From the NCBI GenBank assembly GCA_963804165.1, contig CAWDPO010000025.1, positions 1-64,000 on the forward strand: 64,000 nucleotides of DNA. The letters run 5' to 3'. This stretch comes from an uncultured delta proteobacterium. GTDB taxonomy: Bacteria > Desulfobacterota > Binatia > UBA9968. Position numbers and translations under genes: made by a program. The notes under the pieces are model-generated. The model did not search any database. It was not told where the DNA came from and saw nothing but the letters and a program-made list of their open reading frames with translations. Shown in pieces: positions 15,185-23,856 of the stretch. The number at the start of each line of letters is the position of its first letter. Position 1 is the stretch's first letter.

Positions 15185-16090
15185 ATGCCTGTACGGTCCA
15201 TCGGTTCCGGTGCTATTTCCTTCGGTCTCGTTTCAATCCCGGTAAATCTCTATGTGGCGGCGTCTTCTGAGTCGCCAAGTTTTAACCTGTTGCACGCCAA
15301 GTGCGGCAGCCGGATCAAGCAGCAGCGGGTTTGTCCGGTGTGTAAAGAGGTAGTCGAGCGTCAAGACCTAGTAAAGGGGTATGAACTCGAGAAGAACCAG
15401 TACGTGAAACTGACCGATGATGAGCTCAAGGCGCTCGAAGGCGAAGCCTCGGAGGCGATCGAGATCTTCGAATTCGTGCCTCTTGCGAAAGTAGATCCGA
15501 TTTATTTCGAAAAGAGCTACTACCTCGGCCCCGACAAGGGGGGTGAAAAAGCTTACCGCCTACTTGCAGATTCGATGGTCGAGGCGGGTAAAGTAGCGCT
15601 CGCCAAATTTGTCCTAAGAGGCAGGGAGAATCTCGTCATCATCCGTCCGGCGCAAAAAGGTCTGGTAATGCACACCATGTATTTTTTCAACGAGGTGCGC
15701 AATTTCGACGAGATTGGCAAGGGGGAATCCGCCAAAATCACCAGTCCTGAGACGAAGCTGGCGACTCGTCTTATCGAGGAGCTATCGAATGACGCCTTCG
15801 AGCCGGAAAAATATGAAGACGAGTACGCCCAACGCGTGTTGGACCTGGTGAAGAAGAAGGCTGAGGGCGAAGAGATCACCTTATCTCAAACGCCGCCGCA
15901 GCGGGGCAACGTAATCGACCTGATGGAAGCTTTGAAAAAGAGTCTTGGTACTGTACCGAAGCAAAAGAAACCCGCGATCCAGGCTAGATCAAGCGAGCCT
16001 GAAAAGGGCCGCAAAAAGGCCCAGTCCTCTATAAGAAATGAAACTTTTCTCCACCAACGAAGTAGCGAATATTCTCAATCTACCGAATAG
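15185..16090 (+). CDS. ku: Non-homologous end joining protein Ku
   Basis: GAISFGLVSIPV, RIKQQRVC, VKGYE, FVP...DPIYFEKSYYL, NVIDLMEALKKS, basic C-terminal tail. Confidence 0.95.
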   Translation: MPVRSIGSGAISFGLVSIPVNLYVAASSESPSFNLLHAKCGSRIKQQRVCPVCKEVVERQDLVKGYELEKNQYVKLTDDELKALEGEASEAIEIFEFVPLAKVDPIYFEKSYYLGPDKGGEKAYRLLADSMVEAGKVALAKFVLRGRENLVIIRPAQKGLVMHTMYFFNEVRNFDEIGKGESAKITSPETKLATRLIEELSNDAFEPEKYEDEYAQRVLDLVKKKAEGEEITLSQTPPQRGNVIDLMEALKKSLGTVPKQKKPAIQARSSEPEKGRKKAQSSIRNETFLHQRSSEYSQSTE

Positions 16091-16856
16091 CCGCGTTCGT
16101 TCGTTCGTGCGAGCCGGTTTTATTGCACCCGGGCGAAACAATAGAAAAACGTTACAGTTCAATTTTCGCGACCTGCTCTTTTTGAAAACCGCCAAGAGCC
16201 TTCTTGAATCCCAAAGTCCCGGTAAAAAAAGTTATGCGAATGCTGACTTCCTTAAAAAGAAGCCTTCCGGATGAAGAAGCAGATTACCAGGCTAAAGATT
16301 TATGCCGACGGCCGGCGCATTGTGGTATGGGACGGCAAAGCTCGGTATCAGCCCGATACCGGCCAGTTTCTTATTCGATTTCGATCCTCATACTGTTCTA
16401 CAGACCGTAAAACTCCCTTCTCGAAAAGCCGCCAAAAAAGATCGCGTCGCTAGAGACTGGTTTACCCAGGGCCGCGAGCTGGAAGAAGTATCTCCTGGGG
16501 ATTCCATGGCCGCTTACAAAAAAGCGCTGGAGATTGACCCGACCAATAGCGAGGCCCACATCAATTTGGGTAGGCTTTGCCACAATGCGGGGATGCTGAA
16601 AGAAAGCGAGGACCATTACCGAGCGGCGATCGACATCAATCCCGACGACGCAACTCCACATTTTAATTTGGGTGTTCTTATGGAGGACTTGAAATGCCCG
16701 GCTGAAGCTGCTCGCTCGTATGAGGCGGCGATCGACCGAGACCCCGTCTTTGCAGACGCGCACTATAATCTTGGACTCATTTTCGATGCCCTAGGCAGGA
16801 AAAAAGAAGCTTTCAGCCATCTCCGTATTGCCCGCAATCTTTATTTGGGAAAATAG
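16038..16856 (+). CDS. MerR-type HTH + tetratricopeptide repeat protein (about 270 aa after correcting three frameshifts)
   Basis: N-terminal FSTNEVANILNLPNSRVRSFVRAG...FNFRDLLFLK; middle ADGRRIVVWDG...QPDTGQFLFDF; TPRs AHINLG, PHFNLG, AHYNLG. Confidence 0.8.
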
Positions 16857-16924
16857 GTTCGATGCAGAGCGTGCCTTTTACGGGAGAAAAAACCCGCCGA
16901 TTGTCCTTTTCGCATCGCTGATTC

Positions 16925-19532
16925 ATGGCCCTAGAACTCTATCGCAAAAAACGCAATTTCGAGACGACTCCGGAACCAAAAGGGAAGCTCGCCAAATCAA
17001 AGCGCCAGGCGCTTGCGTTCGTAATTCAAAAACACGCCGCCACTCGTTTACACTACGACTTCAGATTGGAGCTCAACGGTGTCTTGTTGAGCTGGGCCGT
17101 GCCGAAAGGGCCAAGTCTCGACCCCAACGACAAGCGTCTGGCGATGCACGTCGAAGATCATCCCATCGAGTACGGTGAGTTCGAAGGAATTATTCCGCCA
17201 AAACAATACGGCGCGGGAACCGTGCTGCTTTGGGACCGGGGGACGTGGCTGCCGAAAGAAGATCCGGTTGCGGGATACAAAAAAGGTAAACTCAAGTTCG
17301 ATCTCCACGGTGAAAAACTTCACGGTGGCTGGACTCTGGTAAAGAGTCACGGCGGCAAATACGGCGGTGACAAGGCATGGCTATTGTTTAAAGAAGACGA
17401 CGAGTACGCCCGTACGGGGCCGGAGGCGCGGGTGGTCGATGATCTTCCCAACAGTGTCGCTACTCATCGCAGCCTTAAACAGATTGCCGCCGATCCCAGC
17501 ACGGGTTTGGCATTCGAACAAGTCGGTCGCGGAAAACCTCGAGCATGGCCCCAGGAGGAAATCTAGCGTCCGCATCGACTTGGCGAAAATAAGGGGAGCG
17601 CGCAAAACGGCATTGCCGGATTTTATCAACGCGCAGCTCGCTACTGTAACTAAAAATATTCCGACGGAAGATCGCTGGGTCCATGAAGTCAAATACGACG
17701 GCTATCGAATGCTTAGCCGCATCGATGCCGGAGCAGTTCAACTTTATTCACGTAATCGTAAAGAATGGACTCAGGAATTTCCCCGCGTAGCAAAGGCACT
17801 GGCAGATTTGCCCCTAGAGAACGCTTGGATCGACGGCGAAATTGTCAGTTTGGACGCCAAAGGACGTACCAGCTTCCAAGCCTTGCAGAATGCGCTGTCC
17901 ACGAACACCAGTGAGGTAATTTATTACGTCTTCGACCTGCCGTACTTGAATGGCTATGATTTACGCGGCGTCGTTTTGGAGCAACGAAAAGCCCTGCTCA
18001 AACGCCTCATCCCAGAGCCGGGTATCATTCGCTATAGCGACCATTTTAATGTGCCGGGTACGAAGTTTATCGCTGAGGTTTGCAGTCTCGGGCTCGAGGG
18101 AATGATTTCGAAACTTCGGAACTCGACGTACGAGGGCTCGCGCGGAAATGCCTGGCTCAAAATAAAATGCGGACGACACCAGGAATTCGTCATTGGTGGG
18201 TTCACCGACCCCGAGGGTTCGCGGCACGGCTTCGGTGCGCTTTTATTAGGGGTCTATGATGCCGAGGGGCGGCTGCGTTATTCAGGTAAAGTCGGTACGG
18301 GATTCAATCAATCGCTTCTTGCGAAGATGCGCAAGACTCTCGATGGACTCGTTCAGGACAAATCACCGTTCGTAAATCCACCCCAAGGGGCAGAGGGGCG
18401 GCGCGCGCATTGGGTCAAGCCGGAACTTGTCGCTCAAATAGCCTTTACTGAATGGACTCAAGATGACATCTTGCGCAATTCTTCATTCCAGGGATTGCGA
18501 AATGACAAGCGTGCGCGGGACGTCGTGCGGGAGGAATCAGGCGGTACTCCCAAGCTTGCGCCAATAGGATCTGAGATAGACCTATCTCGGCGAAAAGGAA
18601 TCAATACTGCTGCAGAGAAAGCCGATAAGGGTACAGTGGCTGGAATCAAACTGACCAATAGCGACAAAATACTTTATCCAGAGGCTGGAATTACCAAACG
18701 CGATCTCGCGTTATACTATGAAGCGATCGGCGAATGGATCATTCCGCATTTGCGCAATCGCCCCCTTACTCTACTGAGATGCCCCAATGGGTGGGATAAG
18801 GAGTGTTTCTATCAGAAACATGCCGATCATAGCGTGGCCGACGTTATTGAGCGAGTCACAGTTCGCGATAGCGACGGGCCAGCTTTGTATATGATGGCTA
18901 ACTCCGTAAGCGCGCTAGTAGCGATAGCGCAAATGGGCGCTTTGGAGCTGCATCCGTGGGGCTCGCGCACGCCGAAACTCGGCCTTCCCGATCGCATCGT
19001 ATTCGATTTCGATCCCGACGAAGCGCTCCAATGGAAACAGATTACCGAAGCAGTGAATTTATTAAAAACCCTGCTCGACAGCCTCGGCCTGCGCGGATTT
19101 CTGAAGACGACCGGCGGCAAAGGCTTGCATGTCGTCATACCCATCGAAGCCACGCTGCCATGGCAGCATATTAAAGGCTTCAGCCAAGCCATCGCAGAGC
19201 TGTTCGTGAAAACGTTTCCGGATCGTTTTACGGCTAAGATTCTCAAAGTATCGCGCAAGGGAAGAATTTTTGTCGACTATTTACGCAACGGCGAAGGCTC
19301 GACGGCCGTGGCGCCTTATTCGGTACGCGCTAAAGCCAACGCGCCGGTTTCAACGCCGATTGACTGGGGCGAGATCACACGAGACGTGCGCTTCGATCAT
19401 TTCAACGTCAAGAACGTACCCGCGCGGTTAAAGCGGCTCAAGCGCGAGCCATGGGCGGAGTTCATGAAAATCCGACAAACGATCACCAAGACAATGATGG
19501 AAACGGTTGGCTATCAGGCAGGCAAAATCTAG
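16925..19532 (+). CDS. ligD: DNA ligase D (phosphoesterase-ligase-polymerase), frameshift near 17500
   Basis: PE: YRKKRNF..TPEP, FVIQKHAATRLHYDFRLE, SWAVPKGPS; LIG: EVKYDGYR, WLKIKC; POL: DFDPDE, KTTGGKGLH, DYLRN. Confidence 0.95.
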
Positions 19533-19603
19533 ACTCGTTCTTTGGAAGGAAATACAGTGGCGCAACTCAGAGTTTGTTGGATCTTTACTGACTCGGCTTC
19601 CTG

Positions 19604-19951
19604 TTGTTTCAACTGATCGAATTCTATCAAATTGTTTGTCAGATCTGGGAAGAAACATTGAAAATATGTCCCATCGGCATCGATGACAACTTCTTTGATC
19701 TAGGCGGTCATTCTCTAACAGCGTCCCGAGTTATCTCACGAGTCATTCTAACGTTCCAGCTGGAGTTACCGATAAAGTTGGTCTTCGACACGCCGACTGT
19801 GGCGGCGATGGGGTTGGTGATCGCCGCTCATCAGGCCGAGCAGGCGACTCATGACCAGTTGGAACGGATGTTGACCGAAGTAGAGACGATCTCCGATGAG
19901 GATGCGCAACGGCGCGTGGATGAAATTAATTCGAAACTCGCCCGCAAGTAG
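19604..19951 (+). pseudogene. Peptidyl carrier protein (PP-binding) domain, probable 3' remnant of an NRPS-like gene
   Basis: IGIDDNFFDLGGHSL motif with the phosphopantetheine Ser; no clear ATG/RBS and no A or C domain upstream. Confidence 0.65.
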
Positions 19952-20200
19952 CCAGGCCATTGCCCGCCTTTTGTGCGTGTGTACGATTTTGCGGCAATTC
20001 CGGTTCCAGAATTCATCTCGCATCGTACTGGGTCACGACACGAGTTTGTAGCGAGGCCCTCTTTTCGTTCACATAGTGCGAATAGCTTTGAGATCCTGCC
20101 AGAAAACGTTTCGGTCTTTTCTCATCGATTTTTAACATACTCGGGTATAGAATAACGTCCACAACAGGAGCTTATTCTTGCTGAACACGGAGGTACCGAA

Positions 20201-21214
20201 ATGAGCGAGAGGAAAATCCGAGTCGGCATTATGGGCCTAGGGCAGATTGGCCGGCAGCTTTACCACCTCGCGCTGGAAAAAGACGACATCGAGATCGTCG
20301 CCGTTGCCGACATCGGCAAACCGGAAATCATCGAGTATCTGCTCCAAAGTGACGGCATGGAGGAGCCGTCGTGCAAGCTTCAAGACAATTACCTGACTAA
20401 TAAAAAATTCCGCACGCGAATGCTCCAGCTTGCGCGGCCTGAGGAGGTTCCGTGGGATATTATGAACGTTGATTGCGTGGTCGATGCGACCGGGCGATAT
20501 CGTCGCCGGCGCGATATGGAGGCGCATCTGCGCGCCGGCGCTAAGCGAGTTATCCTGGCATCGCTTCCGTCAGAACCGGTCGATCGGATCATCATACCCG
20601 GTATCAATGAAGGCCACGCTACCCGCGCCGACAAAATGATTTCGGCCGGTTCGGCGACGACTAATGCGTTTGCGCTCTTGTTGCAGTCTCTGGATCAGAG
20701 TCTGGGAGTCGACTGTGCGTCGCTGACGACGGTCCATGCCTACTCCAGCGATCAATCGCTGCAGGATTACGCTCACGAAGACTTTCGCCGCAGCCGCTCG
20801 GCAGCGGAAAATATCATTCCCAACAATAATGAGTCGGCGCAGTGGGTGGAAATGGTTCTGCCGAAGTTCTCCGGGAAGTTGAGCGGTTACGCGCTCAACG
20901 TGCCGGTCCAACGGGGATCGTTGCTGGACGTGAATTGCGTGATGCGCGACGGCACCGTTACGGTCGATCAAGTAAACGACGCCGTGCGCGCCGCTGCTGC
21001 TCAGCAGCCGGACTTGATCGGTATCACCGATGATCCGATTGTTTCATCCGACGTCATCGGTTGCCGGCAATCCTTGCTCTTCGATGCGTGCGCGACCATC
21101 AAAGCAGGAAAGAAAATCGTCAAAGTGCTGGCCTGGTACGAGAGCCTGGGGCATGCATGCCGCGTGCTCGACGTGGTCCGGCAATACAGCAAGCTTGACG
21201 GAGGTGTATCATGA
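20201..21214 (+). CDS. Divergent GAPDH homolog lacking the catalytic cysteine (candidate pseudoenzyme)
   Basis: GLGQIGR Rossmann motif, DATG, SAGSATTNAF in place of SNASCTTNCL, TTVHAY, DFRRSRSAAENIIP, PIVSSD; GGAGG RBS. Confidence 0.85.
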   Translation: MSERKIRVGIMGLGQIGRQLYHLALEKDDIEIVAVADIGKPEIIEYLLQSDGMEEPSCKLQDNYLTNKKFRTRMLQLARPEEVPWDIMNVDCVVDATGRYRRRRDMEAHLRAGAKRVILASLPSEPVDRIIIPGINEGHATRADKMISAGSATTNAFALLLQSLDQSLGVDCASLTTVHAYSSDQSLQDYAHEDFRRSRSAAENIIPNNNESAQWVEMVLPKFSGKLSGYALNVPVQRGSLLDVNCVMRDGTVTVDQVNDAVRAAAAQQPDLIGITDDPIVSSDVIGCRQSLLFDACATIKAGKKIVKVLAWYESLGHACRVLDVVRQYSKLDGGVS

Positions 21215-22212
21215 GAGTTGCCATTAACGGATTTGGCCGAATCGGCCGCTCTGTGTTTCGTATTCTAGACAAGCGGACCGACGCCGAACTGGTAGCAATC
21301 AACGACGTCTTCGATCACGACGCGCTCCGATACTTGCTGAATTACGACACCGTGATGGGACGATTCGCGGGCACGTTGCGGCTCGAAGGCGATGAGCTGG
21401 TCACGTCGCACGGCCGAACCCGCATGCTCCGCGAGAAGGATCCGCTTAAACTGCCGTGGCGCGACCTCGGCATCGATGCCGTCATAGAATCGACCGGAAT
21501 ATTCACCAGCAGGGAACAGCTTAGCAAGCACCTGGAGGCCGGCGCCAAGCGTGTTGTGCTGACTGTTCCGGCGAAGGATGCGATCGATTATACCGTCGTG
21601 ATCGGCGTTAATGATGACGGGCTCAAGCCGGAGCACCGGATGATTTCCAACGCGAGCTGCACCACCAATTGCTTAGCGCCCATGGCAAAGGTGCTCCATG
21701 ATTCTTTCGGCATTGTCGAAGGGATCATCAATACCGTGCATGCATACACGAACGACCAGCGCCTTGCCGACGTGCCGCACTCGGACTGGCGGCGCAGCCG
21801 CGCCGCGGCGGAGAATATTATTCCGACCTCCACTGGGGCCGCGAAAGCGGTGGGCGAAGTGTTGCCACAGCTGAAAGGGCGGCTGGACGGTATCGCTGCG
21901 CGCGTTCCGGTGCCCGACGGTTCCGTGGTCGATTTGTTTGTTGAGCTGGAGAAACGGATTAGTCCCGACGACGTTCATACCGCGATAAAGGCTGCGGCGG
22001 CTTCGGAGCGGATGAAGGGTATTTTACAGCTCATGGAAACGCCCGTGGTATCGTCCGACGTGATCGGCAACTCGCACTCTTCTATATTCGACTCGGCATT
22101 CACCAGCGTCACCGGCGGCAGATACCTAAAGTGCCTCAGCTGGTACGACAACGAGTGGGGATATTCAAACCGCGTCTGCGATTTGCTGGGTTTGATCGGA
22201 CGGTGGGGATAG
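21211..22212 (+). CDS. gap: Type I glyceraldehyde-3-phosphate dehydrogenase
   Basis: AINGFGRIGR, ESTG, SNASCTTNCLAP, TVHAYTNDQ, ARVPV, WYDNEWGYSNR; ATGA overlap with the upstream gene. Confidence 0.95.
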   Translation: MRVAINGFGRIGRSVFRILDKRTDAELVAINDVFDHDALRYLLNYDTVMGRFAGTLRLEGDELVTSHGRTRMLREKDPLKLPWRDLGIDAVIESTGIFTSREQLSKHLEAGAKRVVLTVPAKDAIDYTVVIGVNDDGLKPEHRMISNASCTTNCLAPMAKVLHDSFGIVEGIINTVHAYTNDQRLADVPHSDWRRSRAAAENIIPTSTGAAKAVGEVLPQLKGRLDGIAARVPVPDGSVVDLFVELEKRISPDDVHTAIKAAAASERMKGILQLMETPVVSSDVIGNSHSSIFDSAFTSVTGGRYLKCLSWYDNEWGYSNRVCDLLGLIGRWG

Positions 22213-22341
22213 CTTGCGTCGCCGTTGAAGTTTGCGACGGTCGATCGAGACGTTCTGCGCTGCTATTGGATTGCTGCTCACTTAGGCCAAATAAAGGGAT
22301 GGAGAGCCTTTTATGATTCACCCGCGGGCAGAGCGGGAAAA

Positions 22342-23856
22342 TCACTTCGTTGCGTTCATCACTTCCAGCTTTCCCCGATCAATCTTGCCCATGGCGGTGC
22401 GCGGCAGGGCGGGGACAAACTCCACGATTTTCGGCGCTTTGTAGGAGGCCAGCAACTCTTTGCAGAATTGAATCAATGCGTCGGCGCTGCAAACGGCGCC
22501 GGGATGTAGAACCACGAACGCCTTTACGGCTTCGCCCCACTCGGCGCTTTTGAAGCCGCCGACGGCGGCGTCCGCCACTGCCGGATGTTTGCGCAGTGTG
22601 TCTTCAATCTCTTCGGGGAAGACGCTGATGCCGCCGCTCTTGATCATGTTCTTTTTACGGCCTGAGATGTGCAGGTAACCTTGGTCGTCGAGGAAGCCGA
22701 TGTCGCCGGTGTGACACCAGCCGCCTTGGAGAAATTCCTCCGTAGCCTGCGGATTTCGGTAATAGCCTTGAATTGCCAACGGGGTGCGTAAGCATATCTC
22801 ACCTTCTTCGCCGACCCGCATTTCGCGTCCGTCGTCGTCGATTTTGACTCGAACGCACCAGATTGGCTTGCCAATGCTGTCACCGAACGACACGCGATCC
22901 TCAGGCGTAAGAACCGTGATTTGGCCGCAGTCCGTGGAGGCGTAGGCTTCGTAATACCTCGGACAGACTTTCTCCCAGAAGCTTTGTGCTGCGTCGAGAG
23001 ACAAGTGACCGCTAGTGATGCTCACATAGGTAAGCGACGACTTGTCGAATCGATCAAGTTTTTCGTAGCGCAACAGGCGCTCGCATAGCGTCGGGACCAG
23101 TATCGAGAAGGTGATCTTCTCCTGCTCGATGGTTGTCAAAAACGCTCGCTCGTCAAATCTTTCCTGAATGAAAACCGTCCCACCGATGTAGAGAAGCCCG
23201 ATCACGGAGCCACGCCCCGCATTGAAGTGGACCGGCAAGGTCATCAGCGCGCGCTCATCGGCGTTGGTTCCGCGGGTGATCGCGTAGTTCAACGAACGCA
23301 GCGTGTAGGCCTCGTGACTGACGGTGCATGCCTTGGGAAATCCCGTCGTCCCGGACGTGATCATGAGAATGAAGGTGTCTTTGCTGTCGACTTCGACTTC
23401 CGGGTCGTCCGGGCTCCCCGTGGCCAGAGCGTCTTCAAACGGCCTGCCTTCGATGTTCTCGGTCCCTTCTATCACGAGTCATCTCTCCTGCGTCATGCGC
23501 TCGCGCAGGATGCCCGTGAGATCTGTGGTTTCTTTGCGTCCTTCCAAAATGAAAGCCCTCGGCGCGAAGAAATTGACCATCGCTTCGCATTCCCGAGCGC
23601 TCCAGTGATAGTCGAAGGGAACGGCCACGGCGCCGATCTTGGCCAGCGCGAAGATGGCTTCGAAATGCTCAGCGCGGCTGCCGCAAGAGAGGCCGACTAG
23701 GTCGCCTTTGCGGATGTCTTGCGCGAATAGGTAATTGGCCAGGCGATTGGTGCGATCGTGGAATTCCCGATAAGTCACCGTGCGGTGCGCGTCAACGATG
23801 GCGCGTTTTGCCGGAAAGCGTTGGGCGTTACGAGGTAGCGATTCACCGATATTCAT
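22342..23856 (-). CDS. Acyl-CoA synthetase / AMP-binding enzyme (frameshift near 23477)
   Basis: ITSGTTGFPK, YASTD, GEIC, HTGDIG, GRKKNMIKSGG, LPRTAMGK. Confidence 0.9.

Follow-up and report, generated by a model that had tools for sequence, protein, structure and literature searches.

Glyceraldehyde-3-phosphate dehydrogenase (GAPDH) is among the best-studied enzymes, and textbooks present it as a homotetramer whose four subunits are identical and all active. Its mechanism runs through a thiohemiacetal and a thioester on Cys149, with phosphate sites at Arg231 and at Thr208-Gly209. In the 64,000-nucleotide (nt) stretch of DNA analyzed here (the window; contig CAWDPO010000025.1 of an uncultured Binatia bacterium), a gene for a GAPDH paralog without this cysteine (gene A) stands directly upstream of a gene for a canonical type I GAPDH (gene B), a pair that a first note on the window (the original prediction) had singled out. 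The pair is real and conserved, a two-gene GAPDH module that is apparently undescribed, and A is, on balance, probably the non-catalytic subunit of a heteromeric GAPDH that is made with B by coupled translation.

Type I GAPDH (GapA, EC 1.2.1.12) has the same two Pfam domains and the same fold as A (template-modelling (TM) score 0.85–0.89). Protein A keeps the GxGxxG motif, Asp32, Ser148, Thr150, His176, Arg195 and the S-loop of that family, but it lacks Cys149, Arg231, the Thr208-Gly209 site, one residue of WYDNE and a score above the family cut-off. The chloroplast A2B2 GAPDH of plants is a heterotetramer of GapA and GapB, both catalytic, and is regulated via the C-terminal extension of GapB. 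Two paralogous subunits in one tetramer, one of them regulatory, are proposed here as well, whereas A is Cys-less, has no extension (337 vs. 333 amino acids (aa) in B) and is encoded in an overlapping bacterial operon. The beta and gamma subunits of NAD-isocitrate dehydrogenase and HisZ of ATP-phosphoribosyltransferase are non-catalytic, regulatory paralogs with degenerate active sites; the likeness lies in a degenerate yet conserved pocket and, for A, in a proposed subunit pairing with a catalytic paralog.

Bacterial GAPDH mutants engineered at Cys149/150/151 (1NPT, 1NQ5, 7C5J, 7C5G, 3HQ4, 3K9Q) carry Ala, Ser or Gly at the nucleophile and are otherwise intact and crystallizable. These are laboratory point changes, whereas A is a natural, old lineage with coordinated Asn231, Asn206, Ser180 and Met6. 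In trypanosomatids, the excerpted text of PMC6221367 describes a dead paralog of S-adenosylmethionine decarboxylase, the prozyme, which heterodimerizes with the enzyme and activates it, as shown experimentally. As that text presents it, the system is like the present one in having a dead paralog under selection as the partner of an active sister enzyme; it differs in enzyme family and in domain of life, and for A we infer both association and effect. No description of a natural Cys-less GAPDH paralog or of a heteromeric bacterial GAPDH was found in the full-text literature, a body of text with subscription journals largely outside it, in line with the original prediction, which knew of no characterized bacterial system of this kind. 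The available portion of a 2025 review of the GAPDH-like superfamily (PMC12041015) treats Cys-dependent groups only.

Residues lost and kept in the Cys-less paralog

The open reading frames (ORFs) were re-read and agreed with the original prediction, which had reported two full-length frames of 337 and 333 aa with an ATGA overlap and no frameshift. Its reading of SATTNA, LNVP and WYES in A, with a catalytic-site codon several changes away from Cys, was also borne out. The codon is GCG, three substitutions from a Cys codon, and A reads AWYESLG where canonical GAPDH reads WYDNEWG, with a one-residue deletion in WYDNE, while GLGQIGR, VHAY and DFRRSRSAAENIIP are kept. The motifs of B are canonical, namely SCTTNC (TGC at 21658–21660), ARVP and WYDNEW. 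A third statement, that A and B share an S-loop variant (RRSR..AAENIIP), proved weaker than put there: D-R-R-[SAG]-R was usual among the aligned GAPDH representatives, and the shared motif, being the ordinary bacterial form, is thus no argument for a special relation between the two proteins.

The two proteins are 37% identical, and both matched Pfam Gp_dh_N and Gp_dh_C (for A, E-values of 9.5e-18 and 1.8e-39). Against the type I GAPDH model TIGR01534 (cut-off 367.2 bits), B scored above the cut-off with 418.5 bits and A below it with 258.3 bits. By domains and fold A belongs with type I GAPDH, and by Cys149, Arg231, Thr208-Gly209 and the family cut-off it falls outside, whereas B, with all catalytic and binding residues present, is a full member. 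The model for erythrose-4-phosphate dehydrogenase (Epd, TIGR01532) gave A 186.5 bits vs. a cut-off of 530.55, and A, without Cys, is not an Epd.

The residues were compared in 171 A-type proteins, comprising 81 from genome loci, 80 from metagenome loci and 10 from an even draw of genomes. Cys was absent from position 149 in all 171, its place being taken by Ala (59), Ser (20) or Pro (2) in the genome set, by Ser (70) or Ala (10) in the metagenome set, and by Ala (6), Pro (2), Ser (1) or Gly (1) in the drawn set. Position 231, an Arg in canonical GAPDH, was Asn in 171/171, and the His176 equivalent was His in 171/171. Among the 161 proteins of the first two sets, Asn stood at position 206 in every one, and Ser148, Arg195/196, Arg199 and the string N-I-I-P-N were invariant. 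The S-loop residues R196, R197, S198, R199, S200, N204, I205, I206, P207 and N208 were invariant in 81/81. In the dinucleotide fold, G12 and G14 were kept in 81/81, G17 in 70/81 and Asp37 (equivalent to Asp32) in 79/81; the pyrophosphate contact Arg10 was Gln, Glu or Arg, and Asn180 was Ser. The equivalents of the inorganic phosphate (Pi) site Thr208-Gly209, positions 210 and 211 of A, were variable. In B proteins, Cys150, His177, Thr180, Arg231 and Thr208-Gly209 were invariant in 78/78.

With no thiol nucleophile and with both anion sites altered, A should be unable to run the GAPDH reaction, for which it is very probably catalytically dead. The strictness of Asn231, Asn206 and His176 indicates that the pocket of A was remodelled, not simply abandoned.

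Conservation and inheritance of the pair

Gene A was described in the original prediction as maintained, and a check for neutral decay of its homologs was proposed there; the data agree with maintenance. By the Nei-Gojobori method (120 pairs from 16 genus loci), the median ratio of nonsynonymous to synonymous substitution rates (dN/dS) was 0.096 for A, indicating purifying selection, and 0.062 for B. Among 18 A orthologs, 194 of 339 columns were invariant. The 120 closest A proteins in a collection of 5.8 billion proteins (82–97% identity) read GSATTNA in 118 cases and GSPTTNA in 2, and the losses are common to the 171 relatives. In one relative (L024, G018:C18:24517–28332), A matched in two frames (residues 2–50 and 47–318) with a diverging end, and was followed by a 24-nt spacer and an intact B; this A carries either two frameshifts or indel errors of the 30-contig assembly G018.

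To determine how widely the pair occurs, 40 relatives were searched with A and B, including 24 other genomes of the genus. An A ortholog (73–96% identity) was present in 19 of the 24, each with B adjoining; in G016 the two genes were separated by a contig break. The 19 include an unpublished genome, G005; leaving it out makes the count 18/23. Orthologs of B (83–96%) were found in exactly the 19 A-bearing genomes and in none of the other 21 relatives. The ATGA overlap was kept in 18 of 19 genus junctions, the window included, and a GGTG/GGAGG-type string 5' of ATGA recurred in the genus loci.

A profile of A-type proteins (an alignment of 6 sequences) was then scanned against one genome per species and yielded 80 A-type loci, 44–96% identical to A. 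The carriers belonged to Binatia, Halieaceae, other Pseudomonadales/Cellvibrionales, Neomarinimicrobiota, Bacteroidales, a Clostridia metagenome-assembled genome (MAG), Lentisphaeria, Latescibacterota and Acidoferrum, and included the cultured Parahaliea aestuarii S2-26. A GAPDH 63–96% identical to B lay directly 3' of A on the same strand in 77 loci; in the other three, the contig ended inside A or at most 272 nt past it. The 77 junctions, in these other taxa, comprised 53 overlaps of 4 nt, 17 of 1 nt and 7 other arrangements, the extremes being an overlap of 10 nt and a gap of 12 nt. Metagenome contigs were scanned next, with a sister Cys-less lineage (P0129 type, 41–42% identical to A) as the query; a B-type gene stood directly downstream in 74 of 80 loci, and the remaining 6 were cut by contig ends. 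Both scans together placed a B-type GAPDH directly after A in 151 of 160 loci, and contig ends cut the other 9. Adjacency of Cys-less SxTTN homologs to gap, a check that the original prediction had put forward, was therefore found far beyond the genus, as a conserved, paired and overlapping arrangement.

When 121 genomes were drawn evenly from the order to which Parahaliea belongs, 11 had a B ortholog (68–100% identity, the next best match being 52%), and an A-type ORF stood directly upstream in 11/11. Every sampled genome with a B ortholog had A as well (30/30), and neither an intact B-type gene without A nor an intact A-type gene without B was seen in the genomes searched. The closest public records were MAGs labelled Deltaproteobacteria or Candidatus Binatia. 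The public name of A-type genes is "type I glyceraldehyde-3-phosphate dehydrogenase", and in the protein atlas the cluster names were generic GAPDH names only.

In the trees, the Cys-less proteins grouped together, separate from ordinary GAPDHs, in a single clade of 22 rows with support 99; 21 of these rows were Cys-less. With 40 paired A proteins and 40 paired B proteins included, there was one A clade (45 leaves, support 91) and one B clade (42 leaves, support 99), the extra leaves in both being only representatives without known context. The other two GAPDHs of the source genome took other positions in the tree. Taken descriptively, the pairwise distances among A proteins tracked those among B proteins (r = 0.89; 2701 pairs, 74 loci), and A diverged about 1.3 times faster. 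Origin of A as a recent duplicate of B was rejected, because the Cys-less clade of A is old and B groups with ordinary GAPDHs. According to the trees, A and B are old, co-inherited lineages, and B represents a partner lineage dedicated to A.

Distant Cys-less representatives (P0133, P0137, P0142, P0143, P0147, P0169, P0198 and P0212) had Asn, Lys, His or Ser at position 231. P0150, inside the Cys-less clade, keeps Cys and has Ser at 231. A read-through related to it, P0271 (residues 1–260 and 345–677), keeps Cys, has Asn at 231 and continues into a B-like gene. This one error-ridden record, P0271, hints that the phosphate-site change came before the loss of Cys, and the P0150/P0271 lineage may represent an intermediate stage in the evolution of the partner.

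A search for longer proteins gave five matches. P0271 and P0272, considered as A-B fusions, proved to be read-throughs of neighbouring genes garbled by frameshifts; the other three have unrelated architectures. In G135, an open frame of 677 aa that spans B was likewise rejected as a fusion, being an alternative frame instead. Two very long proteins that came up among the hits of the analysis, P0123 (2089 aa) and P0144 (1455 aa), carry several stretches resembling GAPDH, or a GAPDH joined to HEAT/armadillo-type repeats.

Predicted subunit contact and competing explanations

The AlphaFold2 model of A, from a 74-row alignment, showed the GAPDH fold with a predicted local distance difference test (pLDDT) value of 88.4 and a predicted TM score of 0.88. 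Only the S-loop segment (residues 182–205) of this monomer fell below pLDDT 50; in GAPDH tetramers, the S-loop is ordered by neighbouring subunits. Foldseek with the model returned GAPDHs only (TM 0.85–0.89, identity ≤37%). No solved structure came from the A clade; the best sequence match among solved structures reached 215 bits, and the best matches were the enzymes of Thermotoga maritima (1HDG) and Geobacillus stearothermophilus (1GD1).

When B was modelled with A as a complex, the prediction scored 0.75 vs. 0.00 for the best control, a level attained by 58 of the 80 solved complexes and by 2 of the 110 mismatched pairs. The runs shared at least 98% of contacts, and the partner pLDDT was at least 90. 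In the predicted complex, A and B meet through the extensive beta-sheet/S-loop surface known from GAPDH dimers, and part of the S-loop of A lies in this interface. Invariant residues of A made up 16 of 44 positions in the predicted interface vs. 28 of 293 elsewhere (odds ratio 5.4, a descriptive figure), whereas those of B showed no such contrast (15 of 44 vs. 87 of 289). This location of the invariant residues of A is more telling than the prediction score.

A is a "prozyme"-type candidate, because it is a paralog with lost catalytic residues under purifying selection, and linkage to the active enzyme, co-occurrence and co-divergence were all found. In the explanation that we consider rather more probable than otherwise, A and B would be co-produced via their overlapping stop and start codons and would join in one heteromeric GAPDH; its simplest form would be an A2B2 tetramer with the architecture of the usual homotetramer. 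A would supply structure and possibly a regulatory ligand pocket, and B the two working active sites; A keeps the Rossmann core and His176 and, most of all, the S-loop and beta-sheet surface of subunit contact that in GAPDH completes the cofactor pockets of neighbouring subunits. From the overlap we infer that the two are expressed about 1:1. The predicted contact would fit an A-B heteromer, and physical association, stoichiometry, a complete lack of activity in A and a regulatory role are all proposed from the features observed above.

Several points weigh against this explanation. The trees are quick FastTree trees. Relatives are not independent samples, so that the distance and interface statistics are descriptive only. 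The prediction for B with A copies the packing of solved GAPDH homotetramers and may owe its score to that resemblance, and it cannot tell A:B from A:A or B:B. The split A beside an intact B in L024 could stem from faulty assembly or could mean that A is dispensable for B, and the search for longer proteins (5 matches) brought up no natural A-B fusion. Finally, the invariance or near-invariance of Ser148, Thr150, His176, Arg195, Asn206 and Asn231 fits a new ligand-binding or catalytic function too.

A stronger form of the heteromer explanation, which we put forward tentatively and hold to be doubtful, is an obligate A2B2 glycolytic GAPDH with two of its four sites permanently inactive. The remodelled pocket of A (His176, Ser148, Thr150, Arg195, Asn206 and Asn231) would then exert allosteric or NAD(H)-sensing control, and Cys-keeping relatives of the P0150 type would be a surviving intermediate. 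Such an enzyme would have built into it the half-of-the-sites behaviour that has long been debated for GAPDH.

It is somewhat unlikely that A has been neofunctionalized and acts alone as a homo-oligomer, either as a sensor of NAD(H) or a metabolite or as a His176 enzyme without a thioester, and is merely co-expressed with B in the same pathway. The constraint on the pocket speaks for it, with Asn231 and His176 fixed in all 171 proteins, Asn206 in all 161, and Ser148 and Arg195 invariant, as do the retention of GxG (G12 and G14) and Asp37 and of the whole fold in the model. However, the occurrence of Ala, Ser, Pro or Gly at position 149 shows that it is not a catalytic residue, the Pi-site residues 208–209 and Arg10 vary, and the invariant residues concentrate at the inter-subunit surface. 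A stop/start overlap in 70 of 77 junctions together with full co-occurrence is typical of subunits, not of pathway neighbours, and no further gene is conserved beside the pair.

A merely transient binding of A to B, in which A would occupy GAPDH interfaces and tune the amount of active B tetramer by inhibiting B, by protecting it as a redox-insensitive partner or by assisting its assembly, appears less likely again. The interface conservation and predicted contact fit it as well as they fit a stable heteromer, and a conditional role is possible given that B is an extra GAPDH beside two others in the source genome. On the other hand, translational coupling predicts similar amounts of A and B in every lineage, and in two genomes the pair is the only GAPDH of ordinary length, which is unsuited to a mere inhibitor. 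A faulty sequence or pseudogene decay as the origin of A, which the missing Cys itself and the apparent frameshifts of the single relative L024 might suggest, is refuted for practical purposes by the full-length frame, the dN/dS of 0.10, the same substitutions in 171 relatives from several phyla, and a GCG codon three changes from Cys.

Genomic setting and implications

The features of the pair and its neighbourhood are listed in Table 1. A promoter and terminator scan of positions 19500–22700 gave a count of sites not above that in shuffled sequences. No public sequencing run contained more than 0.20 of the sampled words, and the only one on record as RNA contained 0.06.

Table 1. Positions of the gene pair, its sequence elements and adjacent genes in the window
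Feature	Position	Strand	Basis
Gene A, Cys-less GAPDH paralog, 337 aa	20201..21214	+	ORF, without internal stop
Gene B, canonical type I GAPDH of partner-specific clade, 333 aa	21211..22212	+	ORF, without internal stop
ATGA overlap, stop of A and start of B	21211..21214	+	read from sequence
GGAGG, Shine-Dalgarno-like, 7 nt 5' of the ATG of gene A	20189..20193	+	read from sequence
GGAGG, Shine-Dalgarno-like, for gene B, within the last codons of A	21200..21204	+	read from sequence
GCG, Ala152 in place of catalytic Cys149, in SAGSATTNA of A	20654..20656	+	sequence, A/B alignment
CAT, His179 of A, equivalent to His176, kept, in VHAY	20735..20737	+	sequence
S-loop of A, DFRRSRSAAENIIPN, residues 194–208, most conserved stretch of A	20780..20824	+	alignment
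AAC, Asn233 of A in place of substrate-phosphate Arg231, in YALNVP	20897..20899	+	sequence
Ku	15185..16090	+	
LigD 3'-phosphoesterase, separate	16925..17566	+	
LigD ligase and primase-polymerase	17367..19532	+	
Phosphopantetheine-binding carrier protein, stand-alone, 115 aa	19604..19951	+	
AMP-binding (acyl/aryl-CoA ligase-like) gene	22342..23856	-	

The source genome (7.5 Mb, 46 contigs, 81% complete) holds two further full-length GAPDH genes on other contigs, 52–55% identical to B, and one fragment. The pair is therefore an extra set beside two GAPDHs in this organism. The fragment (G000:C35:103368–103715, L005) is a short C-terminal piece of GAPDH with two in-frame TGA codons and is probably a gene remnant. 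Two complete gammaproteobacterial chromosomes had no Gp_dh_C matches other than A, B and one long-form GAPDH of about 500 aa, so that B is the only GAPDH of ordinary length there.

When the ORFs of the 80 genome loci were clustered, no third gene was conserved beside the pair; the commonest neighbour families occurred in at most 16 loci and were lineage-specific. They comprised an AMP-binding enzyme, phosphoenolpyruvate (PEP) carboxylase, LepA, 2-keto-3-deoxy-6-phosphogluconate (KDPG) aldolase, RelA/SpoT, GTP cyclohydrolase I and TrmB. In loci of the Halieaceae type, the pair follows KDPG aldolase (eda; 11 loci) and precedes PEP carboxylase (ppc; 16 loci). Given these neighbours and the two chromosomes in which B is the only GAPDH of ordinary length, the pair serves central carbon metabolism in that group. 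A TrmB-type sugar-specific transcription regulator was found directly upstream of the pair in 8 of the 80 loci (L064:5099–5929 and 7 more; Neomarinimicrobiota and others) and is a candidate operon regulator in that lineage.

In the window, the pair is surrounded by Ku and LigD genes, the small phosphopantetheine carrier, the AMP-binding gene on the other strand, and genes for NMT1-like binding proteins. The Ku and LigD genes form a non-homologous end-joining set (15185–19532), in which the ORF of the LigD ligase overlaps that of the phosphoesterase by 200 nt; the ligase gene therefore probably starts downstream of the listed position. The carrier protein is encoded just upstream of the pair, with no same-strand synthetase adjacent. 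The AMP-binding gene has a single in-frame TGA at 23479–23481 with a Pfam match on both sides, which could mean that the gene has decayed, that the sequence contains an error or that the stop is recoded.

If A is indeed a subunit of a heteromeric enzyme, a whole class of bacterial GAPDH would have a second, non-catalytic and previously unnoticed subunit. Annotation would change, since A-type genes are otherwise counted as active isozymes in metabolic reconstructions. The pair would offer a natural system for the study of subunit cooperativity and half-of-the-sites reactivity, and it would add a case from bacterial central metabolism to the few known partner subunits that are dead paralogs.

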